From Eledone cirrhosa (lineage: Eukaryota), in the NCBI GenBank assembly GCA_964016885.1, contig OZ024741.1, positions 366,854,001 to 366,918,000 on the forward strand: a stretch of 64,000 nucleotides of DNA, in the 5' to 3' direction. A program made the position numbers and the translations under genes. Shown piece after piece: positions 9,142 through 56,068 of the stretch; position 1 is the first letter of the stretch; each line of letters begins with the position of its first letter. The notes below the pieces were generated by a model. That model saw nothing but the letters and a program-made list of their open reading frames with translations, was not told the origin of the DNA and searched no databases.

Positions 9142-9659
9142 AGTTTTTTATTTATCTAATACCCGTTCATCATAATTTTATGTTAGATGCTTTCAGATAT
9201 ATTCTAAACACCAGTTTGATTACTAAATCCATTTAAAGTCTTGATTTTATCTTAGAGCATTATATCAATAAACATGTCAATACAATTTATATAATGAACT
9301 AGCAGAAGTGCCTGGCGTTGCTCAGAGTTTAATTGCTTTAAAGTACTTTTAATGATTCCACTTAATTATGATTATTGAGGCATTGAAAGTAAATACGGGT
9401 AAGTTTGAAAATATACAATAGCATCTACTCACCATATGTCAGACCGGCAAGACTGTAGTGGTGCTGAATAGAGGAGTCACAACACCTCTCTGTAGACCAC
9501 ATTTTTTGTTCTGCCTTTGGGCGCAAGTATAAATAATTTCTGCTTGCATCCCACTCTTGAGCGGGCGACGTATAATTGGCCGTGTGAGAAGCACGGCTGG
9601 GCTAAATGGAGGCCTGCCGTTGATAGCGTTTGGCCTTGGGACTTGTTGATTGACATCGC

Positions 9660-11545
9660 GAAGCAAAGTTTAACGGGTAATTGAAGTCGGCGCAGAGTAC
9701 AGGGGCATTCCTTACCTGATGGAGTTAATGGTATTCTGGGTATGAAGACGTTTTCGCCGCAGCCTGTGAGAATTGTGGCTTCAATTACATGCGGCAGGAG
9801 GTTCTTACCACTAACCGTGTTCCGTTGCAGAGACGTGGTGGTTCCAGGTTCCTCAACAGCATCACTGGAGTCCCAACTTTGACTTGCAGTTCATGAGGTG
9901 GCAGTCCAGAGAGATCCAAGGAATTGAGGAATTGTGTGGAAAAATCGTCAACCTCATCTTTGTCCACAACTTTGTCCACAGATTTGTAGGTACGGAGGTG
10001 TCCAGGAATGCGTTGCAGAAGGTCCTCATTGAATTTTGCAATGGAGACATTTTTGGGAGCCAACATGACTCTATCGCACAGCCAACTCGTGTTTTTGTAG
10101 TTGATGGCCATATCGGGAAAGACAGAGACTGTGAGGTTGTCAACAGTGTCGACAACGGTGCCTACTTGCGAGACTGCTATTTCTCCAGCTGCATCTGAAA
10201 GTGCAGTGCCGTCACCAACTGTTAAGAGGTCCTTTGAGAGGTCGGCTGATGAGTGGTCGCCGAACAGTTGGGCTCTCCTGTTTGTTGTGAGGGTTAGAAT
10301 TGTCACTTCCTGCCACAGGGGAGATGACTTAATGCAAGCCCCCACAGTGTCAGCCGTGGTGGCTTTTGGAACAACTGGAAGAGTTTGTCGAAAATCGCCA
10401 GACAGCAGTAGAGGTACTCCTCCCATCGGCCGGTTGCATTCCCTGATGTCTCGTAGGGTCCTGTCTAACACCTCAAGGGACCCTTTATGGGCCATTGTGC
10501 ATTCATCCCACACAATTAGGTGGCATCTTTTCAAGACTTCCGCTTTGTTAGAGTCCTTGGTGATGTTGCAGGTTATTGTGTCGTCTGAAGTCGTGTTGAA
10601 TGGTAGTTTAAATGCGGAATGAGCTGTCCTACCTCCGGGCAGCAGAGTTGTGGCAATCCCAGAAGAAGCCACAGCCAGGGCGATTCCTTTTTGCCGTCGC
10701 ACTTTGGCGGCCCGCCGTTGATCCTGCAACAATTTCGGCTCGTTTTCATTGATGAACAGTTCAAGGGCGTCAACATCGTAGGCAGTTTCCTGAATTATGC
10801 CCGTCGGAAGTTTGTCTGAGCCCGTTTGCTGAACTTTTGGAAGTGCATAGAATGGAAGGTCATTGCCGCCAGCAGTTAGGATTTTGTCCTCGATGTCAAT
10901 GAGAGCTTTGTTGAAGAATTCGTCGCTGAGTCGTACGTCGGAATGAGGGAGTAGCAGTTGTCCTTGGTGTATGTAGTCATCGGAAAGGTCCTCTCTGCAT
11001 TTGTCCCATAAGGATACAGGGTCGCTTAACTCGCATGTCTGCAGTAGCACCGCAAAGAGTTGCTGAAGAGTTCGCGCTGAGCGTATTGTAGCTGCCTCCG
11101 CCAATGTCGCATCCCACTGAGCGCCATCTTCCAGTAGACCCTGTGTAAGGCAGGCTGCGCGGAATGAAGTACAAACCTCTCCGTTGATTGTTTTTGAAAG
11201 ATGTCGGTCCTACCACCTCATGCAATAGAAGGCGGAGATAAAAGCATTCCTGTTGGTTAGGATGAATGGTGAACACTCTCCCAAGGGTAGGGGACATTTT
11301 AATGTCTGGATGTCCCTCAACGGGTTGTCCTTTCACCCTTCTTAACCAAATTCTGTTGTTTGTGTTCCATGTGTAGTATGATGGCACCTGAGAGTAGAAG
11401 AGGGTCTTGGCGAAGGGATCGTTTCGGCATAACTTATAAAATGCTGTAAGTGTGGTGTCCTTGGGTTCCTCTGCTATCTCAGCAGCGGTGGAGGTGGTGA
11501 AGTAGACTCTTTGACCGTTTTCAAGGTGCACCACCAACTGTTTAA
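9660..11545 (-). pseudogene. Helitron RepHel remnant (Pif1-family helicase), frameshifted; Rep domain and Walker A missing
   Basis: ORFs 9785-11104 and 10977-11675 contain VASSGIATTLLPGGRTAHSAFKLP, LIVWDECTM, GDFRQTLPV, LLRNLEPPRLCNGTRL, VHLENGQRVYF and ECFYLRLLL. Confidence 0.9.
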
Positions 11546-12175
11546 ATAATAGGTCAAACCTGTAAGCCAACCCGTCTGAGTTATAGCACAAAAGAGCGTA
11601 AACAGGGGCGATATTTTGGAGCACACTGGAAAATAAATCATCGAAATCGGAGGTTCCTGAAAAAAGGTTTTTCATTATTTTTTTGTCTCATATTGCAAAA
11701 AACAAAGAAAAAAAATTACAAAAAGGACAACAATAAAATATAATGTCTTTGTTGAGATTCAAGTAAATGAATGCTTAAGCATCGTTATGATTACGTTTGT
11801 TGTTTTATAAATTCATCTGTTGCTTTTGAATATTTGTTATTTGATGTAAAATGTAACATTGAGAGATTCGCGTTCCTAAACGAAGAGGGGGAATGATCTA
11901 TTATAGAGAGAGGGAAGAGCAACGGAGAGAATAAAGCTAAGAAACCATAAGGAGGTGTGTTAAACCTCGAAGCATGAAGAGAGTAAAGCAGTTAAATTAT
12001 AGAGAGGGGGAGTAATCTATTATAGAGAGCGGGAAGAGCGATGGAGTGAGTAAAGCTATGTTTGTTGTATAAATTGATGTGTTGCTTAGTTTTCAAAGTT
12101 TGTATCGCGTTCCTTGAAAAGAAGTTTTGTCGCAGTTGTAAATTGTAATGGTGATAGGGTAGTAGACAGAGGCAG

Positions 12176-26339: not shown

Positions 26340-26407
26340 ATATTTGGGGAGGGTCATATTTGCGTAATATTGCCAGAATTAATAACATATATATATATAT
26401 ATATATA

Positions 26408-26848
26408 CATACTATTGTACGTCTGTATACATATATGTATGTACGTATACATACATACTTACATTTAAGTAAGTGCCATACTAAGAGTGAGAAATGAAAT
26501 TTCGTTTTCATTTTTTTTCAACTTATCCATTTCGGTATGCCTGACCGATTTAACTCACTCAATATGCAAATTAGGCTGCTCAGCCGTTAATTTTCATAAG
26601 GAAAGTATATACTTTCGAACGTTCAACTATCTGGCAGATGGGTATACGGTGCTGATGATAGCTAACAAGCTGGAAACTAGTACATCGTTCCTGTGGCAGT
26701 GTTGAACAAAAAGGTGACGTGGTTGCCTTAACACCGTATGGCATAAATTCAGGCTGTTCAGTTTGTTTACAAACGAACAAAGCGGCGTTATAATAAGCGT
26801 CCGCTAAACTGATGCGTGCATATATGTATGTGTACCTGTATGTATATA

Positions 26849-26881
<33 letters not shown>

Positions 26882-26996
26882 GCATGCTACTGTACGTCTG
26901 TATACATATATGTATGTACGTATACATACATACTTACATTTAAGTAAGTGCCATACTAAGAGTGAGAAATGAAATTTCGTTTTCATTTTTTTTCAA

Positions 26997-27001
<5 letters not shown>
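26408..27001 (+). mobile_element. Retrozyme/Penelope-pLTR-like non-coding element, 475-bp unit (~1.25 copies), inserted in (TA)n
   Basis: ~118-bp direct repeat at ~26408-26526 and ~26883-27001; central hammerhead; homologue at 34015-34748. Confidence 0.8.
26646..26688 (+). ncRNA. Minimal type I hammerhead ribozyme
   Basis: ACGGTG CTGATGA TAGCT aaca AGCTG GAAA CTAG TA CATCGT; palindromic stem III ACTAGT; GUA site. Confidence 0.85.
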
Positions 27002-27049: not shown

Positions 27050-27930
27050 AAAAAAAGATGAAATCGAAAATGCAACTGGAGTCTTATTTTTAAAAAAATA
27101 TATATATTTATTTGGTTCCTTTACCAGTTTCGCAGTTCTTCTGCTTTTCAAAAGTAGAGTTGAGATGGAGGGTCTGTGGTTTTTCTATCATCTGGTTGGT
27201 CTCTGAATGTTACTTGTTTTATATGGAAAAAGTGGCTCGAAATGCCATGTTTTTCGAGAAGTAATTTGATTGGTTGGTCAATAATTATATTAAATTTCGC
27301 ACTTGTTCGCGTTACAAAGTTCTTCAAACAAGGGGGGGGGGGGGGGGGGTGTCACGGGTTGTTTTTTCATATATGAGTGTTTGAATTTCTTTTTACTTAA
27401 AAAAAAGGGGGCTCACGAAGGCTTTTTTTAAATAAACGTAATTTGATTGGTTATAAATGAAATTATGGCTGTCACGTGAACAAGTTTTCATTAAATTTTT
27501 GCGCCCTTATTTGGAAATCTATTCTGTAGCATTTTTAGAGAATTTTATGACAAGTAAAAGATAATGGTCAAGAGAAATTGGATGGGAGAATTGTTCTGGT
27601 TCAGTGAATATGGTTAGTTCGCTGGGGTGTCAGAATTCAGATTTTCTATTGAATAAAGAAAGTAAAGATATGTATGTTTATTTGTGTGCTTGTGTGTGTG
27701 TGTGTTGTGTGTTTTGTGTGTGTATTTGAATTTCTTTTTACTTTAAAAAAAAAGGGGTCTCACGAAGGCTTTTTTTTTAATAAACGTAATTTGATTGGTT
27801 AAAAATGAAATTATGGCTGTCACGTGAACAAGTTTTCATTAAATTTTCGCACCCTTATTTGGAATCTATTCTGTAGCCTTTTTAGAGAATTTTATGACAT
27901 TTTTTAAGTAAAAAGAAATTCAAACACACA
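27046..27930 (-). mobile_element. Penelope-pLTR-like element with internal tandem duplication and short inverted end
   Basis: ~175-bp direct repeat at ~27379 and ~27724; inverted piece 27903-27927; hammerhead near the (TA)n-abutting end; partial homologue at ~60485-60620 (+). Confidence 0.65.
27117..27156 (-). ncRNA. Minimal hammerhead, U3-A8 variant
   Basis: Minus strand: CTT TTGAAAA GCAG aagaa CTGC GAAA CTGG TA AAG. Confidence 0.6.
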
Positions 27931-27963: not shown

Positions 27964-28039
27964 TAGAAGTGGTTAGACAACAGTTAGTTCACCATACCGA
28001 GAACAATTGTTTCACCTTAGCGGATCCTCAGCTCGTAAT
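27964..28039 (-). ncRNA. 76-bp hammerhead-bearing fragment in a TA/CA tract (hammerhead 27998-28035)
   Basis: Minus strand: CGAG CTGAGGA tCC gctaa GGt GAAAC aatt GTT CTCG; same family as 54756-54899. Confidence 0.65.
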
Positions 28040-28084: not shown

Positions 28085-28386
28085 TTTACGTCTGCTTTTC
28101 CCTGCTTGCAAGGGTGGGACGGGAACTGATTCTGGCTTGATTTCTACAGCTGAATGCTCTTCCTAACACCAACCTCATTTACAGTGAGTGCTGGGTGCTT
28201 TTTTGCCGTGGCACCTCCATGACCACTTTGCAGTGGAATGCATCTCATTTCTACAGCTGAGTAAACTGGAGCAATGTGAAATAAAGTGTCTTGCTCAAGG
28301 AAACAACACATCACCTGGTCTGAGAATTGAACTCACAACCTTTCGATTGCAAGGCCAATGCTCTAACCACTAAGCCATGTGCCTCC
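28085..28386 (-). mobile_element. SINE family B (tRNA head, CORE-like domain, RTE-like tail)
   Basis: Reverse complement tggcttagtggttagag, gagttcaattc, tccttgagcaagacactt; close copies at 50985-51310 and 55707-56025. Confidence 0.85.
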
Positions 28387-29255
28387 ATATATACATATAT
28401 ATATATCATCATCCTCATTTAAAGTTCACTTTCCCCGGCTAGCAAGGGTTGGGCAGGTATACATAAATCAAGTCAGTACTGAAGTAAATTTACTGACCTC
28501 CCAGACAGGTCAAGGAGTCTGTATCTTGCTTTCATATTGTCATACATTGTATCAAATGCTCAGAAGAAGTTGACACAAACTGGAGGGTCCTCCTAAATCC
28601 TTGTTTGGCAAGTTTTCTATGACTGGATGCCCTTCCTAATACTGATCCCTTTATTGTGTGTACAGGGTACTTTTATCATATAGATCTCCAACACTATATA
28701 TATATATTCCCACATACAGACTTATTCCTTATTCAATAATCCTCTCTTCACCAAAATTCCAACTCAATAAAATTATCTTGAAACATTATAAAGTATTTAA
28801 GCCCTTCTCCAGTCTTATTTACAGATTTTGGTAATAGTTGTTTTGTTAAACCAATTATTTTGTTTATGTATATTCTTATTTTGTTGCACAATGCTATTAT
28901 ATTATTTTGGTATTGTATCAGAATATAGAATATAGATATCAGAAGAAAGAATGTTTGAGTTTCAGGCATCTATAAACTGAAAACTCTTGATCCAACATTT
29001 ATGCCAAATTTTGGCAGATACTTTGCCAACAAAAGATATAAATAATCATTATTTGTGTATCTATGTTTTATATTTATGCATGTTATATATATGTATATGA
29101 GTGTGCATATGTATGTGTATGTATGTGTGTATGTGTGTGTGTGTCTATGTGTATGATGTAATGAAATAAACTGATGTTGAATGTGGTACCGTCTCTCTTC
29201 CTTTTCTTAATGTGTATATATATATATATATATACATATATATACATATATATAC

Positions 29256-29333
<78 letters not shown>

Positions 29334-30412
29334 GAGAAAGCCTTTGACAGAGTTCCTCGTGCTGTAATCTGGTGGGCTCTTAGAAAACTAGGAGTAGATG
29401 AATGGCTTGTGAAAGCTGTACAAGCCATGTATAGGGGAGCAGTCAGCAAAGTTATGATTAGCAATGAGTATAGCGAGGAATTTAGTGTTCAGTTCGGTGT
29501 CCACCAGGGCTCCGTTCTTAGCCCTCTCCTGTTCATCATCGTCCTGCAGGCAATAACGGAGGAGTTTAAGACCGGATGCCCATGGGAACTCTTGTATGCA
29601 GATTACCTCACACTTATAGCTGAATCTATGGTAGAACTAGAGAAGAAATTCCAAACTTGGAAGCAGGGGCTAGAAAGAAAGGGTCTCAAAGTCAACATGA
29701 CAAAGACTAAGGTCCTTGTAAGTAGACGAGAAAACAGAACCCAGATCCCCTCAGGGAAATGGCCTTGCTCAGTATGTAGGAAAGGTGTAGGTAGGAACTC
29801 CATTCTCTGCCCCAAATGCAAACAATGGGTACACAAGAGATGTAGCGGGATCTCAGGGAGCTTAATTAAGAATGTAGGCTTCACATGTAGCAGCTGTGCT
29901 GGGACAGCAAGCAGCAAACAGCCACAGGAAACAAGTACCACCAATCTCTGGGAGGGTTCTGTAGAAACAGTAGACAGCTTCTGCTACCTAGGTGACCGAA
30001 TTAGCAGCGGAAGTGGATGTTCAGAAAGTACAATAACTAGGGTAAGAACGGGATGGAAGAAGTTCAGGGAACTACTGCCACTGCTAGCTGCAAAAGGCTT
30101 CTCCCTCAAAATGAAAGGCAGACTGTATGATGCGTGTATCCGAACAGCAATGTTACATGGTAGTGAGACCTGGGCGCTGAAGGTAGAAGACTTACGTAGA
30201 TTAGAAAGAAACGAAGCCTGCATGCTCCAATGGATGTGTAATAGTAATATACGCAAACGGCAAAGCATGAATGAATTGAGAGAGAGACTGAGCATAAGAG
30301 GAATCAAATGCTGTGTGCAGGAGAGGCGGTTGTGTTGGTATGGACATATGATGCCTATGAAGGATGACAGCTGCATAAAAAGGTGCAGAGCATTAGAAGT
30401 CAATGGAAACTG
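29334..30412 (+). pseudogene. RTE-clade LINE reverse transcriptase fragment, 5'-truncated
   Basis: [26 protein letters not shown] (normally YADD), GLKVNMTKTK, FCYLG, MLHGSETW, RRLCWYGH; the rest of the ORF runs into SINE and low-complexity DNA. Confidence 0.92.
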
Positions 30413-30769
30413 TTGGACCCCAGTCCCTATCATCTCATTTCTACAGCTGAGTAAACTGGAGCAATGTGAAATAAAATGTCTTGCTCAAGGAAACAACACA
30501 TCATTTATTTATATATATTTTTACATTTTACAAATTTTATCATACCATTATTTAAAGAAGTCATCTGGATATAATTTCCTTCTGTTGCTTATTTATTTAT
30601 TTTTTCTTCTTCTTCTCATCTTTTTCTTCTTCTTTTTCTTCTTCTTTTTCTTCTTCTTTTTCTTCTTCTTCTTGTTTGTTCCATAAGTAAGCTGAAATAA
30701 GGAAGTTACAATGATTTAATTGGATATGTTTAGGAATATACATCAAGGTTGGCATCTACACAGTTGTAG

Positions 30770-33438: not shown

Positions 33439-33834
33439 AGCGACACCTGCCATGTGCTTGGAGACAGCTATGCAGAGTTACCTACACATAGCTCTGACGT
33501 CACCAAAAATATTTCTCTCTCCGGCGGTGACTTGCGAAGAGACAACACGCATAATTTTGGAGCTGACTTCTGCCTATGAAGAGATAAGTCCTGCCTTCTC
33601 TCTCTCTTCTTTATACGCTCCAGTCTTGGAGTCAAGACCAACTCATCAACTACACCATCACAACACGTGGTAAAGTATTTCTATTGTGTTACTATTGACT
33701 CCTGTGATATAAAACTTTGTAAAACACGCACCAGCCATTCTATTCTTTTTAATATTATTATAAGTAATATATACACCAATACCAGTCATCTAAAGTGGTG
33801 ACCCTGACGTGATTCGAACACGCAGCCTTCTGAT
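33433..33834 (+). mobile_element. LTR-like segment followed by an extended tRNA-Trp primer-binding sequence, inside (TA)n
   Basis: 33796-33834 tggtgaccctgacgtgattcgaacacgcagccttctgat is the reverse complement of the eukaryotic tRNA-Trp 3' half including CCA; LTR termini are degenerate. Confidence 0.7.
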
Positions 33835-33954
33835 ATATATATATAAGTAGTTCCACAACAGTTAGTTTACCATTATCGGGGACAATTATTTCACTAAATT
33901 CATCCCATGGACTGAGTGCTGTACTGCTACCGATATAACCCACCAGTGTTCTAC

Positions 33955-34014
<60 letters not shown>

Positions 34015-34021
<7 letters not shown>

Positions 34022-34742
34022 TATGTACACGTACATACATATATGTATACAGACATACAGTAGTATGTATACATATATACATACATGCACACATATATAT
34101 ATGTACGTACCGCTTAATACGGGATGTTTGTTTGCAAACACACCGAGCATTATAATAAATGTTCGGTGAATCCATACGTACATATATATATGTGTGCATG
34201 TATGTATATATATATACTACTGTACGTCGGTATACATATATGTATGTACGTGTACATACTTATATTTAAGTAACAGCCGTACTAAGAGTGGGAAATGAAA
34301 TTTCGTTTCATTTTTTCCGTTTATCGTTTTCGGTGCACCTGGCCGATTAACCCACTCGATATGCAAATTGGGTTACTCAGCCGTTAATATGCATAAGGTA
34401 AGTATATACGTTCTACAATCTGGCAGGAAGGTATACGTTGCTGACGATAGCTAATAAGCTTGAAACTAGTACAGCATTCCTTTGTCAGTGTTGAACAAAC
34501 GAGCAACGATGGTTGCTAGACACTACGGCTTAATACGGGATGTTTGTTTACAAACACTCCGAGCATTATAATAAATGTTCGGTGAATCCATACGTACATA
34601 TATATATATGTGGGCATGTATGTATATATATATATACACACTACTGTACGTCTGTATAAATATATGTATGTACATGTACATACTTATATTTAAGTAACAG
34701 CCATACTAAGAGTGGGAAATGAAATTGTGTTTCATTTTTTAT

Positions 34743-34748
<6 letters not shown>
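34015..34748 (+). mobile_element. Retrozyme/Penelope-pLTR-like element, 416-bp unit (~1.5 copies) with inverted 5' segment, in (TA)n
   Basis: gcttaatacgggatg at 34112 and 34528; 34015-34109 is the reverse complement of ~34176-34265; central hammerhead. Confidence 0.82.
34435..34477 (+). ncRNA. Minimal type I hammerhead ribozyme
   Basis: ACGTTG CTGACGA TAGCT aata AGCTT GAAA CTAG TA CAGCAT. Confidence 0.82.
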
Positions 34749-34782
<34 letters not shown>

Positions 34783-35079
34783 CGTAATCCACTTGGTTGT
34801 GGTGGGACTGATAATGTTGTGGGAACTTTAGTGTTTCTGAAGAGGACAGCTTATTGAACAGGGATTTCCAGACTAGAAATAGATAGTAACTTAACCACTA
34901 CCATGATAGTCGATAAATCAATCTCCTTCAATCAATCGACCCCCTAAAATGATCATAAAACAATGAACTGCATACCTACACCAGTTTTCTGTTTTTATTA
35001 TTCACGAATACATATTTGTATATATATATATGTATATATATATAAATGTTCTCAACACCAGCAGTAGCAAGCGGTGGGA

Positions 35080-35132
35080 GGGACTGTTCTGATGAAGACC
35101 AGTCAAGTCTGAAACGCATAGACGGTTGTCCC
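35080..35132 (+). ncRNA. Minimal type I hammerhead ribozyme
   Basis: ACTGTT CTGATGA AGAC cagtcaa GTCT GAAA CGCA TA GACGGT; stem III has a mismatch (ACGCAT instead of ACGCGT). Confidence 0.7.
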
Positions 35133-35380
35133 CCTTGCTTCTGCTGAACCCTACCAGAGGGCGTTAGCCCCAGTTTTTGCATAGTTACGGCTTCCTAAAT
35201 AGCGTGTTTCTTTAGAAATACGAAGTTTCTATACATATTTGTATACAGCTATGCCTGAAGCTAAATCCTATTTCTATATATATATATATATTTAAATGTA
35301 TAAGAAAAAACAAAAATGCTAAGGTAATGTTTCTCCATAGTGTGATGGTAAGCATTTGACTTGACCGTTTGGAAGCAGAA

Positions 35381-35510
35381 ATATATGAAGATATGTACGG
35401 ATAAAATTTGTTTGTGTGGCTCCAGGTGGAAGATCAATTATATAATTACTCTGTGATCTTCCACCTGGATCCACACAAAAACATTTTTATCTGCACATAT
35501 CTTCATATAT
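35381..35510. repeat. Inverted repeat with ~56-bp arms
   Basis: atatatgaagatatg...ccaggtggaagatca / tgatcttccacctgg...catatcttcatatat. Confidence 0.85.
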
Positions 35511-41404: not shown

Positions 41405-44400
41405 CACTTCATTGTTCTTTCATACTTCCATTACTGCATACTTACTTTCTGTTACACTTCAACTCTTTCATACTTCCATTCCTGTATACTTACTTTCTGT
41501 TATACTTCCACTCTTTCGTAATTCCGTTCCAACATACTTACTTTCTGTTATACTTCCACGCTTTCATACTTCCATTCCTGCATACTTACTTTCTGTTACA
41601 CTTCAACTCTTTCAGAATTCCATTCCTGCATACTTACTTTCTGTTATACTTCCACTCTTTCATACTTCCATTACTGCATACTTACTTTCTGTTATACTTC
41701 CACTCTTTCATACTTCCATTACTGCATACTTACTTTCTGTTATACTTCCACTCTTTCATACTTCCATTCCTGTATACTTACTTTCTGTTATACTTCCACT
41801 CTTTCATAATTCCATTCCAGCATACTTACTTTCTGTTATACTTCCACTCTTTCATACTTCCATTCCTGCATACTTACTTTCTGTTATACTTCCACTCTTT
41901 CATACTTCCATTCCTGCATACTTAATTTCTGTTATACTTCCACTCTTTCATACTTCCATTCCTGCATACTTACTTTCTGTTATACTTCCACTCTTTCATA
42001 CTTCCATTCTTGCATACTTACGTTCTGTTATACTTCCACTCTTTCATACTTCTATTCCTGCATACCTACTTTCTGTTATACTTCCACTCTTTCATACTTT
42101 CATTCCTGCATACTTACTTTCTGTTATACTTCCACTCTTTCATACTTCCATTCTTGCATACTTACTTTCTGTTATACTTCCACTCTTTCATGCTTCCATT
42201 CCTGCATACTTACTTTCTGTTATACTTCCACTCTTTCATACTTCCATTCTTGCATACTTACTTTATGTTATACTTCCACTCTTTCATGCTTCTATTCCTG
42301 CATACTTACTTTCTGTTATACTTCCACTCTTTCATACTTCCATTCCTGCATACATACTTTCTGTTATACTTCCACTCTTTCATACTTCCATTCCTGCATA
42401 CCTACTTTCTGTTATACTTCCACTCTTTCATAATTCCATTTCTGCATACTTACTTTCTGTTATACTTCCACTCTTTCATACTTCCATTCCTGCATACCTA
42501 CTTTCTGTTATACTTCCACTCTTTCATACTTCCATTCCTGCATACATACTTTCTGTTATACTTCCACGCTTTCATACTTCCATTCCTGCATACTTACTTT
42601 CTGTTATACTTCCACTCTTTCATACTTCTATTGCTGCATACCTACTTTCTGTTATACTTCCACTCTTTCATGCTTCCATTCCTGCATACTTACTTTCTGT
42701 TATACTTCCACTCTTTCATAATTCCATTCCTGCATACTTACTTTATGTTATACTTCCACTCTTTCATACTTCCATTCCTGCATACTTACTTTCTGTTATA
42801 CTTCCACTCTTTCATACTTCCATTCCTGCATACTTACTTTCTGTTATACTTCCACTCTTTCATAATTGCATTCCTGCATACTTACTTTCTGTTATACTTC
42901 CACTCTTTCATACTTCCATTCCTGCATACTTACTTTCTGTTATACTTCAACTCTTTCATGCTTCCATTCCTGCATACTTACTTTCTGTTATACTTCCACT
43001 CTTTCATACTTCCATTCCTGCATACTTACTTTCTGTTACACTTCAACTCTTTCAGAATTCCATTACTGCCTACCTACTTTCTGTTATACTTCCACTCTTT
43101 CATAATTCCATTCCTGCATACTTACTTTCTGTTATACTTCCACTCTTTCATACTTCCATTCCTGCATACTTACTTTCTGTTATACTTCCACTCTTTCATA
43201 ATTCCATTCCTGCATACTTTCTTTCTGTTATACTTCCACTCTTTCATACTTCCATTTCTGCATACTTACTTTCTGTTATACTTCCACTCTTTCATAATTC
43301 CATTCCTGCATACTTACTTTCTGTTATACTTCCACTCTTTCATACTTCCATTCCTGCATACTTACTTTCTGTTATACTTCCACTCTTTCATACTTCCATT
43401 CCTGCATACCTACTTTCTGTTATACGTCCACTCTTTCATACTTCCATTCCTGCATACTTACTTTCTGTTATACTTCCACTTTTTCATACTTCCATACCTG
43501 CATACTTACTTTCTGTTATACTTCCATTCCTGCATACATACTTTCTGTTATACTTCCACTCTTTCATACTTCCATTCTTGCATACTTACTTCTGTTATAC
43601 TTCCACTCTTTCATACTTCCATTCCTGCATACTTACCTTCTGTTATACTTCCACTCTTTCATACTTCCATTCCTGCATACTTACTTTCTGTTATACTTCC
43701 ACTCTTTCATAATTGCATTCCTGCATACTTACTTTCTGTTATACTTCCATTACTGCATACTTACTTTCTGTTATACTTCCACTCTTTCATAATTCCATTC
43801 CTGCATACATACTTTCTGTTATACTTCCGCGCTTTCCTACTTCCATTCCTGCATACCTACTTTCTGTTATACTTCCACTCTTTCAAACTTCCAGTCCTGC
43901 ATACTTACTTTCTGTTATACTTCCACTTTTTCATACTTCCATACCTGCATACTTACTTTCTGTTATACTTCCATTCCTGCATACATACTTTCTGTTATAC
44001 TTCCACTCTTTCATACTTCCATTCCTGCATACTTACTTTCTGTTATACTTCCACTCTTTCATAATTGCATACCTGCATACTTACTTTCTGTTATACTTTC
44101 ACTCTTTCATACTTCCATTCCTGCATACTTACTTTCTGTTATACTTCCACTCTTTTATAATTCCATTCCTGCATACCTGCATTCTTACTTTCTGTTATAC
44201 TTCCATTACTGCATACTTACTTTCTGTTATACTTCCACTCTTTCATACTTCCATTCCTGCATACTTACTTTCAGTTATACTTCCACTCTTTCATACTTCC
44301 ATTCCTGCATACTTACTTTCTGTTATACTTCCACTCTTTCATAATTGCATTCCTGCATACTTACTTTCTGTTATACTTCCACTCTTTCATACTTCCATTC

Positions 44401-47400
44401 CTGCATACTTACTTTCTGTTATACTTCAACTCTTTCATGCTTCCATTCCTGCATACTTACTTTCTGTTATACTTCCACTCTTTCATACTTCCATTCCTGC
44501 ATACTTACTTTCTGTTATACTTCCACTCTTTCATGCTTCCATTCCTGCATACTTACTTTCTGTTATACTTCCACTCTTTCATACTTCCATTCCTGCATAC
44601 TTACTTTCTGTTACACTTCAACTCTTTCAGAATTCCATTACTGCCTACCTACTTTCTGTTATACTTCCACTCTTTCATACTTCCATTCTTGCATACTTCT
44701 GTTATACTTCCACTCTTTCATACTTCCATTCCTGCATACTTACCTTCTGTTATACTTCCACTCTTTCATACTTCCATTCCTGCATACTTACTTTCTGTTA
44801 TACTTCCACTCGTTCATAATTGCATTCCTGCATACTTACTTTCTGTTATACTTCCATTACTGCATACTTACTTTCTGTTATACTTCCACTCTTTCATAAT
44901 TCCATTCCTGCATACATACTTTCTGTTATACTTCCGCGCTTTCCTACTTCCATTCCTGCATACCTACTTTCTGTTATACTTCCACTCTTTCAAACTTCCA
45001 GTCCTGCATACTTACTTTCTGTTATACTTCCACTTTTTCATACTTCCATACCTGCATACTTACTTTCTGTTATACTTCCATTCCTGCATACATACTTTCT
45101 GTTATACTTCCACTCTTTCATGCTTCCATTCTTGCATACTTTTTCTGTTATACTTCCACTCTTTCATACTTCCATTCCTGCATACTTACCTTCTGTTATA
45201 CTTCCACTCTTTCATACTTCCATTCCTGCATACTTACTTTCTGTTATACTTCCACGCTTTCCTACTTCCATTCCTGTATACATACTTTCTGTTATACTTC
45301 CACTCTTTCATACTTCCATTCCTGCATACTTACTTTCTGTTATACTTCCACTCTTTCATAATTGCATTCCTGCATACTTACTTTCTGTTATACTTCCATT
45401 ACTGCATACTTACTTTCTGTTATACTTCCACTCTTTCATACTTCCATTCCTGCATACTTACTTTCTGTTATACTTCCACTCTTTCATACTTCCATTCCTG
45501 CATACTTACTTTCTGTTATACTTCCACTCTTTCAAACTTCCATACCTGCATACTTACTTTCTGTTATACTTCCACTCTTTCATACTTCCATTCCTGCATA
45601 CTTACTTTCTGTTATACTTCCACTCTTTCATGCTTCCATTCCTCCATACTTACTTTCTGTTATACTTTCACTCTTTCATACTTCCATTCCTGCATACTTA
45701 CTTTCTGTTACACTTCAACTCTTTCAGAATTCCATTACTGCATACCTACTTTCTGTTATACTTCCACTCTTTCATAATTCCATTCCTGCATACTTACTTT
45801 CTGTTATACTTCCACTTTTTCATACTTCCATACCTGCATACTTACTTTCTGTTATACTTCCAATCCTGCATACATACTTTCTGTTATACTTCCACTCTTT
45901 CATACTTCCATTCTTGCATACTTACTTCTGTTATACTTCCACTCTTTCATACTTCCATTCCTGCATACTTACCTTCTGTTATACTTCCACTCTTTCATAC
46001 TTCCATTCCTGCATACTTACTTTCTGTTATACTTCCACGCTTTCCTACTTCCATTCCTGCATACATACTTTCTGTTATACTTCCATTCCTGCATACTTAC
46101 TTTCTGTTATACTTCCACTCTTTCATAATTGCATTCCTGCATACTTACTTTCTGTTATACTTCCATTACTGCATACTTACTTTCTGTTATACTTCCACTC
46201 TTTCGTAATTCCATTCCTGCATACTTACTTTCTGTTATACTTCCACTCTTTCATACTTCCATTCCTGCATACTTACTTTCTGTTATACTTCCACTCTTTC
46301 ATACTTCCATTCCTGCATACTTACTTTCTGTTATACTTCCACTCTTTCATACTTCCATTCCTGCATACTTACTTTCTGTTATACTTCCACTCTTTCATAC
46401 TTCCATTCCTGCATACTTACTTTCTGTTATACTTTCACTCTTTCATACTTCCATTCCTGCATACCTACTTTCTGTTATACTTCAACTCTTTCATACTTCC
46501 ATTCCTGCATACTTACTTTCTGTTATACTTCCACTCTTTCATACTTCCATTCCTGCATAATTACTTTCTGTTATACTTCCACTCTTTCATACTTCCATTC
46601 CTGCATACTTACTTTATGTTATACTTCCACTCTTTCATACTTCCATTCTTGCATACTTACTTCTGTTATACTTCCACTCTTTCATACTTCCATTCCTGAT
46701 TACTTACTTTCTGTTATATTTCCACTCTTTCATACTTCCATTCCTGCATACTTACTTTCTGTTATACTTCCACTCTTTCATACTTCCATTCCTGCATACT
46801 TACTTTCTGTTATACTTCCACTCTTTCATACTTCCATTCCTGCATACCTACTTTCTGTTATACTTTCACTCTTTCATAATTCCATTCCTGCATACTTACT
46901 TTCTGTTATACTTCCACTCTTTCATACTTCCGTTCCTGCATACCTACTTTCTGTTATACTTTCACTCTTTCATACTTCCATTCCTGCATACTTACTTTCT
47001 GTTATACTTCTACTCTTTCATACTTCCATTTCTGCATACTTACTTTCTGTTATACTTCCACTCTTTCATACTTCCATTCCTGCATACTTACTTTCTGTTA
47101 TACTTCCACTCTTTCATACTTCTATTCCTGCATACTTACTTTCTGTTATACTTCCACTCTTTCATACTTCCATTCCTGCATACTTACTTTCTGTTATACT
47201 TCCACTCTTTCATACTTCCATTCCTGCATACTTACTTTCTGTTATACTTCCACTCTTTCATACTTCTATTCCTGCATACCTACTTTCTGTTATACTTCCA
47301 CCCTTTCATACTTCCATTCCTGCATACTTACTTCTGTTATACTTCCACTCTTTCATACTTCTATTAATGCATATTTATTTTCTGTTATACTTTCACTCTT

Positions 47401-48850
47401 TCATACTTCCATTCCTGCATACTTACTTTCTGTTATACTTCCACACCTCCATTCCTGCATACTTACTTTCTGTTATACTTCCACTCTTTCATACTTCCAT
47501 TCCTGCATACTTACTTTCTGTTATACTTCTACTCTTTCATACTTCCATTCCTGCATACTTACTTTCTGTTATACTTCCACTCTTTCATACTTCCATTCCT
47601 GCATACCTACTTTCTGTTATACTTCCACTCTTTCATAATTCCATTCCTGCATACTTACTTTCTGTTATACTTCCACTCTTTCATACTTCCATTCTTGCAT
47701 ACTTACTTCTGTTATACTTCCACTCTTTCATACTTCTATTAATGCATATTTATTTTCTGTTATACTTTCACTCTTTCATACTTCCATTCCTGCATACTTA
47801 CTTTCTGTTATACTTCCACTCTTCCATACTTCTATTCCTGCATACTTACTTTCTGTTATACTTCCACTTTTTCATACTTCTTTCTTGCATACTTTCTGTT
47901 ATACTTCCACCCTTTCATACTTCCATTACTGCATACTTACTTTCTGTTACACTTCAACTCTTTCAGAATTCCATTCCTGCATACTTACTTTCTGTTATAC
48001 TTCCACTCTTTCATACTTCTATTCCTGCATACCTACTTGCTGTTATACTTCCACCCTTTCATACTTCCATTACTGCATACTTACTTTCTGTTATACTTCC
48101 ACTCTTTCATACTTCCATTCCTGCATACTTACTTTCTGTTATACTTCCACTCTTTCACACTACCATTCCTGCATACCTACTTTCTGTTATACTTCCACTC
48201 TTTCATACTTCCATTCCTGCATACTTACTTCTGTTATACTTCCACTCTTTCACACTACCATTCCTGCATACTTACTTTCTGTTATACTTCCACTCTTTCA
48301 TACTTCCATTTCTGCATACTTACTTCTGTTATACTTCCACTCTTTCATACTTCCATTACTGCATACTTACTTTCTGTTATACTTCCACTCTTTCATACTT
48401 CCATTCCTGCATACTTACTTTCTCTTATACTTCCACTCTTTCATACTTCCATTCCTCCATACTTACTTTCTGTTATACTTCCACTCTTTCATACTTCCAT
48501 TCCTGCATACTTACTTTCTGTTATACTTCCACTCTTTCATACTTCCATTCCTGCATACATACTTTCTGTTATACTTCCGCGCTTTCCTACTTCCATTCCT
48601 GCATACCTACTTTCTGTTATACTTCCACTCTTTCATACTTCCATTCCTGCATACTTACTTTCTGTTATACTTCTACTCTTTCATACTTCCATTCCTGCAT
48701 ACTTACTTTCTGTTATACTTCCACTCTTTCATACTTCCATTCCATTGTTCCCCCACCCTTTCATACTCCCACCATTTCATACTTCCATTCTGTTATGCTA
48801 CCATGTCATACTCACATTCTGTCATATTCTATTATACTCCCATTCTACCA
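41405..48850. repeat. 48-bp satellite (~150 units) built from three 16-bp subrepeats
   Basis: Unit catacttccattcctg-catacttactttctgt-tatacttccactcttt; explains the 16-aa periodic ORFs. Confidence 0.97.
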
Positions 48851-50984: not shown

Positions 50985-51310
50985 CATTTTACGTCCGCTT
51001 TTTCCCTGCTTGCAAGGGTGGGACAGGAACTGATTCTGGGTTGATTTCTACAGCTGGATGCCCTTCCTAACACCAACCTCATTTACAGTGAGTGCTGGGT
51101 GCTTTTTTCCGTGGCACCTCCACGACCACTTTACAGTGGAATGATAGGGACCCCAGTCCCTATCATCTCATTTCTACAGTTGAGTAAACTGGAGCAATGT
51201 GAAATAAAGTGTCTTGCTCAAGGAAACAACACATTACCCGGTCTGAGAATTGAACTCACAACCTTTCGATTGCAAGGCCAATACTCTAACCACTAAGCCA
51301 TGTGCCTCCA
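50985..51310 (-). mobile_element. SINE family B
   Basis: High similarity to 28085-28386 and 55707-56025. Confidence 0.85.
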
Positions 51311-51399
51311 TGTATGTATATATATATGTATATGTATGTATGTATGTTTGTACTACTAAAATAACAAGTATCAGGTAGGATTGGAGAGTATAAAAAAAA

Positions 51400-55033: not shown

Positions 55034-55073
55034 GAGTCTTAACGTTTCGGACACTAGTCCTTCATCAGAAAAT
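55034..55073 (-). ncRNA. Minimal hammerhead in a Penelope-like remnant (~54960-55130)
   Basis: Minus strand CTGATGA a GGAC tagt GTCC GAAA CGTT AAG; weak stem I; homologue at 63200. Confidence 0.65.
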
Positions 55074-55243: not shown

Positions 55244-55706
55244 TAGTTATATCTATATAAATACAGAATGTGTAACTAAGACTGCACCAACATGTATAAA
55301 TATATATACATATCTAACTTGTGTATAAATATATATACATATCTAACTTGTGGACATGTAAAAATGCCATAGAATACAAATTTCCCTGTAAATTGAAAAA
55401 AATGGTAAACATTTTTAATCAATTTTTGGATTTTAATGAACCCTCATCATCTAATCGACCACAAGGAAACCTATATTTGATGGGTATACATACCCATTCA
55501 CTCTTAGTATTATTCTGAAATGGACATACTAGTTTGCATATAATTAGTACTTGACCTGGTAATTAATTAATTAATATATATAGTAAGAAGTGCACTAGCA
55601 ACCGAAGTGTATGACAAAGTTATATCTGTATATATACAGTGTGTAACTGAAATTACACCAACGTGTATAAATCTAGGGTATGGTATGGTCTCGTAACACC
55701 TGATAG

Positions 55707-56025
55707 AGTCCGCTTTTCCCTGCTTGCAAGGGTGGGACGGGAACTGATTCTGGCTTGATTTCTACAGCTGGATGCCCTTCCTAACACCAACCTCATTTAC
55801 AGTGAGCGCTGGGTGCTTTTTTGCTGTGGCACCTCCACGGCCACTTTGCAGCAGAATGATATGGACCCCAGTCCTATCATCTGATTTCTACAGCTGAGTA
55901 AACTGGAACAATGTGAAATTAAGTGTCTTGCTCAAGGAAACAACACATTACCCAGTCTGAGAATTGAACTCACAACCTTTCGATTTCAAGCCCAATGCTC
56001 TAACCACTAAGCCATGTGCCTCCAT
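55707..56025 (-). mobile_element. SINE family B
   Basis: High similarity to the 28085 and 50985 copies. Confidence 0.85.
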
Positions 56026-56037
56026 ATATATGCCTCC

Positions 56038-56068
<31 letters not shown>

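Follow-up and report, generated by a model that had tools for sequence, protein, structure and literature searches.

Octamer, conserved box and TATA motif ahead of the hammerhead in a retrozyme of Eledone cirrhosa: a possible internal snRNA-like promoter

Newt satellite 2 is known to use an octamer and a PSE. The snRNA promoter of this repeat drives transcription by Pol II, as outlined in PMC2220036 and PMC6765202, where Coats, Zhang and Epstein (1994) are cited. Retrozymes, as far as the available text of a review goes, do not seem to carry promoters, and read-through transcription is favoured there (PMC7761336); unlike retrozymes so reviewed, the element described here has a cassette of octamer, box and TATA just ahead of its ribozyme. 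In the literature searched, from which most subscription papers are missing, no promoter in an invertebrate retrozyme is reported beyond schistosomes, and no such cassette is on record; the supplement of PMC7229834 may list the family. The cassette bears on how metazoan retrozymes reach high transcription in all tissues.

The window (the whole stretch of DNA that was analysed, 64 kb) holds two copies of the element, with one ribozyme in each:

26387..27001, forward strand: retrozyme copy 1, a partial tandem of about 1.3 units, period 475, with (TA)n at both ends
34108..34748, forward strand: retrozyme copy 2, about 1.5 units, period 416, with (TA)n at the 3' end
34012..34109, reverse strand: inverted 5' piece of copy 2 (BLAST, 89% over 102 nt)
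26631..26699, forward strand: type I hammerhead of copy 1, with outer and inner helix I, helix II, GAAA and a 2-bp helix III (from the table of pairs)
34420..34488, forward strand: type I hammerhead of copy 2, predicted cut after A34471 (from the table of pairs)
26511..26518 and 26986-26993 (T8), 34311 and 34735 (T6), forward strand: T-run inside the unit; the run at 26511..26518 is the 3' arm of a small hairpin

Within copy 1, self-BLAST aligns 26387-26526 with 26862-27001 at 97.9% identity, and the longer period of this copy goes with an expanded internal TA tract. GC content is 0.375 in the period-416 unit and 0.354 in the period-475 unit; neither an ORF nor an LTR, PBS or PPT was seen in the repeat unit, and an Rfam scan found no tRNA-like part in it. 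The initial annotation had taken the two for retrozyme copies, a reading that the hammerhead fold, the tandem units and the (TA)n ends bear out. Since a type I hammerhead core and a head-to-tail, low-GC, non-coding unit are both present, the element fits the class of non-LTR retrozymes, apparently as a previously undescribed family. The partial tandems, the 5' inversion and the microsatellite targets point to a Penelope-like helper, which, together with self-cleavage and a circular RNA, I infer for this element. An array with two ribozymes was not seen in the 64-kb window; with one hammerhead apiece, both copies would be products, unable to release a monomer themselves. In one public run (X1), 5,163 contigs match a 391-nt stretch of the element, at a summed depth of 0.3-2.2 million (depth not being copy number), and runs X4 and X8 give 6 and 21 matching contigs; X1 contigs less than 80% alike were left out of the alignment. 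Exact-pattern scans for the cassette or the ribozyme returned no match in viral contigs, metagenome contigs or prokaryote genomes.

The window as a whole is rich in microsatellites, SINEs and decayed transposons. A tRNA-derived SINE family of about 330 nt occurs at 28090-28406, 50993-51345 and 55708-56065 (-); its head at 55953-56016 is scored as tRNA by Rfam (33.2 bits), this tRNA-like head being the only match at the gathering threshold, whilst at E up to 5 over 24.9-37 kb there are 104 matches, mostly microsatellite-driven miRNA noise. Broken Helitron-like Rep/PIF1 helicase frames, named by eye from the translation, lie at 9477-11687 (-), and a truncated RTE-like reverse transcriptase with a PHD finger at 29211-30686 (+) stops at TA repeats; the latter resembles eukaryotic RT-PHD clusters, the few labelled members of which are molluscan or cnidarian. 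A 7.3-kb satellite at 41415-48787 is built of 48-nt units with 16-nt subunits and a 144-nt higher order. The stretch 27374-27899 is a partial tandem (period 345, 93% over 182 nt) around a G17 run, with a weak core at 27326 (-), and 35383-35508 is a long inverted repeat, a MITE-like hairpin with a miRNA-precursor score below the Rfam threshold.

In the hammerhead of copy 1, CUGAUGA occupies 26652-26658 and the predicted cut falls after A26682, at a UA site; the core consensus of both copies is CUGAYGA and GAAA. Helix I spans C26631 to G26699 in copy 1 and has an internal loop. The listed pairs are standard or G-U in 22 of 23 cases in copy 1 (the exception is G-G, 26634/26696) and in 21 of 23 in copy 2, and 2 of the 16 helix I pairs are changed on both sides between the copies (26639/26693 and 26649/26685), the first of these double changes also travelling together in X1 (27% and 23%). 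Helix III, the palindrome ACUAGU, has 2 bp, which suggests that cleavage would be dimeric, as described for amphibian retrozymes in PMC7229834. The match to the Rfam model Hammerhead_HH9 is weak (19.5 bits, E 0.82, below the gathering threshold). Other hammerhead-like sequences occur in the window. A type I hammerhead of another family, at 35058-35135 (+) with its core at 35089, has a long helix I extension and adjoins TA repeats, and two related minimal cores of Penelope-like type, CTGATGAAGGA.TAGTGTCCGAAACGTT, lie at 55068 (-) and 63233 (-). A short repeat with a hammerhead-like core that lacks the second A (CTGAGGA..CGCTAAGGTGAAAC) is found at 28031 (-), 54823 (-) and 54832 (+), with a related piece at about 33833-33894; at 54.8 kb it forms a head-to-head inverted pair, and it contains CTCAGCTCGTAAT, three mismatches from the box considered next.

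The cassette upstream of the ribozyme comprises the following features:

26564..26571, forward strand: octamer ATGCAAAT, copy 1, exact; also the 5' arm of a predicted hairpin, 26563-26598
26579..26591, forward strand: conserved box CTCAGCCGTTAAT, copy 1, candidate PSE core, identical between the copies at 13/13 bases
26606-26611, forward strand: TATATA, copy 1, centre of the palindrome GAAAG-TATATA-CTTTC (26601..26616)
34361..34408, forward strand: cassette of copy 2, with octamer at 34361-34368, box at 34376-34388 and TATATA at 34403-34408

All three motifs were found with the starts first reported for them (octamer 26564 and 34361, box 26579 and 34376, TATATA 26606 and 34403). The box occurs without mismatch at these two places only in the window, the 11 other sites having three mismatches each, and the four other exact octamers of the window stand without box or TATA in this arrangement, as judged by eye. 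With the composition of the unit, 0.0065 exact octamers are expected per 100 nt; TATATA occurs in 11.5% of 60-nt windows. The motifs had also been claimed to be conserved. Between the copies this holds, since 26/27 motif bases are identical against 276/353 aligned bases (78%) elsewhere (Fisher p=0.014), the single mismatch being due to where the stored alignment puts the 8-nt gap; the motifs had been seen before they were chosen, and the unit has 10 identical runs of at least 10 nt. Identity is blocky, with 10/10 bases for the octamer and its flanks, 3/6 for the spacer, 13/13 for the box and 8/11 for the next 11 nt. Across the family the claim fares less well: of 391 nt in X1, 24 sites vary at 8% or more and none of them falls in the 27 motif bases, yet neither the 62-nt invariant stretch, taken as the longest gap (P=0.32), nor the lack of variants in 27 bases (P=0.18) reaches significance. 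The raised summed depth of X1 over 26566-26607 (1.45-1.49 million, against 0.43-0.52 million just upstream) is not counted as evidence, because short overlapping contigs inflate such sums. The arrangement of octamer, box and TATA is thus somewhat above chance, not overwhelmingly so.

As to the identity of the box, the vertebrate PSE spans 18 bp (PMC9652321) and is followed by a spacer of 15-19 bp (PMC7949045), which sets CCGT and TATA 29-33 nt apart; the human H1 promoter fits octamer, PSE and TATA compactly within 100 bp (PMC7949045). Against the core of the vertebrate PSE consensus (PMC7949045), the box scores 10/12 with one inserted base. It is the best plus-strand gapped match in both units; in ungapped scoring it lies outside the top four PSE-core sites in either unit. 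Among 4000 shuffles, 65 gave 10/12 or better with one insertion inside a fixed window of 20 starts, and 536 of 1000 shuffled units did so when the match could fall anywhere in the unit. The CCGT core stands 22 nt from TATATA in both copies, 7-11 nt below the vertebrate range, although invertebrate spacings may differ; human U6 is inactivated by a 5-bp change of spacing (PMC7949045). A mollusc or cephalopod PSE was not found in the literature searched, nor was a snRNA gene found in the window with Rfam. A scan for U6 genes in which CARCCG precedes an internal U6 word by 52-82 nt gave three metagenome loci, not the host's (offsets -64, -49 and -48), and in these three neither TATA nor octamer lies near CARCCG.

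Where transcription might begin can be gauged from TATA, which in human U6 lies about 30 nt upstream of the start (PMC5855946). G26634, which follows a pyrimidine, is 28 nt from TATATA and sits at the outer edge of helix I. The distance of 32-40 nt from TATATA to stem I, as first given, applies to the inner helix I only, for the full helix I starts at 25 nt (C26631) in copy 1 and 17 nt (C34420) in copy 2. In copy 1 the box start (26579) is 52-55 nt before the helix I edge (26631-26634), a distance that would fit a Pol II start of snRNA type, about 50 nt after the PSE. Relative to copy 1, copy 2 has an 8-nt deletion after TATA, of a kind that does not reach 8% in X1; with it, a start position set by TATA would come to lie deep within helix I.

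The T-run had been placed near the 3' end of the element. Both copies do stop in (TA)n 8 nt beyond the T8/T6 run, at a TTAT that matches the target, and 36 X1 contigs exit the unit near the T-run into TA repeats at the same place; the run itself, however, is internal to the repeat unit, and the octamer follows about 45 nt downstream of it. Since T-run, cassette and ribozyme form one continuous stretch in each copy, the RNA that was reverse-transcribed had read through T-run, cassette and cut site, and the template of the copies would be a circle or an uncut multimer. The T-run thus does not terminate the replicating RNA, though it could still end a side product, and such read-through speaks for Pol II, in the style of newt satellite 2, rather than for a Pol III unit of U6 type. 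Owing to the same continuity, selection may act on the cassette as DNA and also as RNA.

One further locus in the window offers a comparison:

55245..55675, reverse strand: second decayed partial-tandem element, period 373, ending in (TA)n

This element is possibly a sister family of the retrozyme. It has a broken hammerhead-like core at 55449-55424, which its near-octamer, ATGCAAAC at 55539-55532, precedes by 90 nt; the corresponding distance in copy 1 is 89 nt, and the chance of a near-octamer per 5-nt window is 0.004. The box is not shared, the core lacks a clear helix III, and the 40-nt similarity score of 23 compares with a mean shuffled-window maximum of 23.2. A TATA-centred palindrome is present as well; the 13-nt word ATACTAAGAGTGA and a hairpin plus T-run are common to the family under study, in a different order. 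Of the relaxed hammerhead-like cores with a folding stem II, 4/9 have a near-octamer 60-130 nt upstream (both copies, the second element and 35090, the last in reverse orientation at 76 nt) and 5/9 do not.

The reading I tentatively favour, at somewhat less than an even chance, is that the cassette is an internal snRNA-like promoter from which read-through transcription, probably by Pol II, would start at the 5' edge of the ribozyme. A promoter role is plausible in view of the exact octamer, the PSE-core likeness of the box and the distance of TATA to G26634; the blocky identity, the motif bases fixed in X1 and the box fixed even where unpaired argue the same way, as do the near-octamer of the second element, the compact layout of H1 and the precedent of newt satellite 2. 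Counting against it are the short PSE-TATA and octamer-box spacings, the gap in the PSE match, the score reached by 536 of 1000 shuffled units, the predicted hairpin, the non-significant invariance in X1, the second element devoid of the box, the five hammerhead-like cores without a near-octamer, the deletion in copy 2, and the view of retrozymes taken in PMC7761336. Under the promoter reading, a POU factor would bind the octamer, and SNAPc or another factor the box; the RNA would begin near G26634 and pass the T6-T8 tract and the promoter of the following unit. In arrays of at least two units the hammerheads, probably dimeric given their 2-bp palindromic helix III, would excise a monomer of about 415 nt, to be circularised by a host ligase. 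A Penelope-like reverse transcriptase would then prime just 3' of the T-run, on a (TA)n target, and, by going round more than once, would return to every new copy a promoter ahead of its ribozyme.

Close behind in probability, and ahead of two less likely alternatives, comes the possibility that there is no promoter at all, the cassette being kept for its part in the fold of a circular RNA (as a hairpin or as an RNA-protein site), octamer and TATA arising by chance in AT-rich DNA, and transcription reading through from outside. Whole circular units fold better than shuffles (MFE z -8.8 and -5.8, 40 shuffles each), partly via TA palindromes, and octamer and box form the arms of one predicted RNA hairpin, 26563-26598, a point absent from the initial annotation, in which the box supplies loop, bulge and 3' arm. 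The hairpin appears in the circle of copy 1 (pair probabilities of 0.77-0.99 in this copy) and in the local folds of both copies, where the octamer pairs with the 3' flank of the box; 2 of the 5 differences within it retain pairing as G-U, and a neighbouring stem has an A-U to G-C change (26490/26555). The ten long identical runs of the unit, the abundance of TATATA here and the read-through transcription preferred in PMC7761336 would sit well with this reading. On the other hand, the hairpin has no two-sided change between the copies, compared with 2/16 in helix I, and the whole-circle fold of copy 2 replaces it by other pairing, the octamer being unpaired and the box paired elsewhere. In X1, positions 26592 and 26594, opposite the octamer, vary at 55% and 53%; each of these common 3'-arm variants breaks one pair and makes another, leaving one mismatch, whilst the octamer stays fixed. 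The box, for its part, is fixed even in bases that the hairpin leaves unpaired (CTC loop, GT bulge).

A promoter 5' of the hammerhead, of U6 or snRNA type, had been proposed at the outset. Its snRNA-like half remains plausible, with TATATA 28 nt before G26634; the U6/Pol III half is at odds with both spacing and T-run. A true U6-type (type 3) Pol III promoter, unlikely on present evidence, would start RNA at G26634, the ribozyme trimming the leader and T6-T8 ending a linear RNA of about 270-310 nt, with rare read-through giving circles. The order of octamer, box and TATA is correct for it, a pyrimidine-purine start lies at the right distance past TATATA, a T6-T8 run exists by which copy ends cluster (the 36 X1 contigs), and a TATA box is described as specifying Pol III in human snRNA promoters. 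Yet the spacing is short by 7-11 nt, where 5 bp suffice to kill human U6 (PMC7949045); the copies run 8 nt beyond the T-run, so that the template RNA passed through it; and the unit has additional T4 runs, runs of 4-5 T being efficient terminators according to PMC8406779. As the spacing and terminator tests failed, the cassette is not to be classed as U6-type. The least likely of the alternatives derives the cassette, as a Pol II promoter or a signal for replication, from a Penelope-like pseudo-LTR (pLTR); octamer and TATA may then work, the box would not be a PSE and SNAPc would take no part. The partial tandems, 5' inversion and microsatellite targets are Penelope-like (10.1101/2021.04.23.441226), pLTRs are described as containing promoters and hammerheads, a preprint derives retrozymes from them (10.64898/2026.07.22.740005), and it is the octamer position, not the box, that is common to the second element. 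Against such an origin, no autonomous partner was seen among the ORFs of 8.2-41 kb, and the likeness of the box to a PSE core has modest significance.

A wider proposal, more doubtful than the promoter reading of the cassette itself, is that retrozymes of this host carry a captured, compact octamer-PSE-TATA promoter that starts RNA at helix I and is restored to each copy as reverse transcription rolls round, with an octamer about 90 nt from the core retained in more than one family. If true, the captured promoter would be a counterpart of newt satellite 2 on the other side of the protostome-deuterostome split and the second case, after that of the newt and in a distant phylum, of a hammerhead repeat with a promoter of snRNA type; it would explain abundant retrozyme circles in all tissues and would supply a group poor in such tools with a very short promoter for small RNAs. 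Should the promoter reading fail, the element is an ordinary new retrozyme family. With its three named motifs in 100 nt, the cassette opens the question of retrozyme transcription to direct testing.

To sum up the comparison with known systems, the element resembles metazoan non-LTR retrozymes, as described by Cervera and de la Pena in 2020 (PMC7229834), in its type I hammerhead, its short, low-GC (35-38%) unit, its head-to-tail arrangement and its strong self-pairing, and, as in the axolotl motifs of that work, its helix III is palindromic and weak and its helix II has a U-U pair at the base. It departs from them in its unit, which at 416-475 nt reaches or exceeds the top of the range given there (RNAs of 170-400 nt, repeats of 150-450 bp), and in having 1.3-1.5 units, one predicted ribozyme and (TA)n ends. 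With Penelope-like pseudo-LTRs it has in common the partial tandem, the inverted 5' piece, the microsatellite target, the type I hammerhead and a promoter (here a candidate) in the repeat, but its unit has no ORF and its full helix I with an internal loop is not that of a minimal hammerhead.

As regards promoters, the order of octamer, PSE-like box and TATA, with TATA about 28-30 nt before the candidate start, is the one seen in type 3 promoters for Pol III such as human U6 and H1 (PMC5855946, PMC7949045, PMC9652321). Unlike in H1 (about 20 nt) or U6 (about 200 nt), the octamer is 7 nt from the box; unlike a type 3 PSE, the box needs an insertion and has no RAAR-TG tail at the expected place; and, unlike in type 3 Pol III genes, the T-run sits within a unit through which transcription has to continue. 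In the tandem units of the schistosome Sm-alpha SINE-like repeats, a hammerhead comes after a promoter, as is proposed here, and each unit is transcribed from the one upstream of it, although their promoter is an internal, tRNA-derived one for Pol III (PMC6765202, PMC2770079). Newt satellite 2 is a vertebrate repeat with an experimentally shown promoter, whereas the cassette described here is a candidate by sequence and has a TATA box in addition. Both are hammerhead repeats with an internal promoter of snRNA type (a candidate one here), and by analogy with the newt, in which Pol II read-through yields multimers, the cassette may work like that of newt satellite 2.
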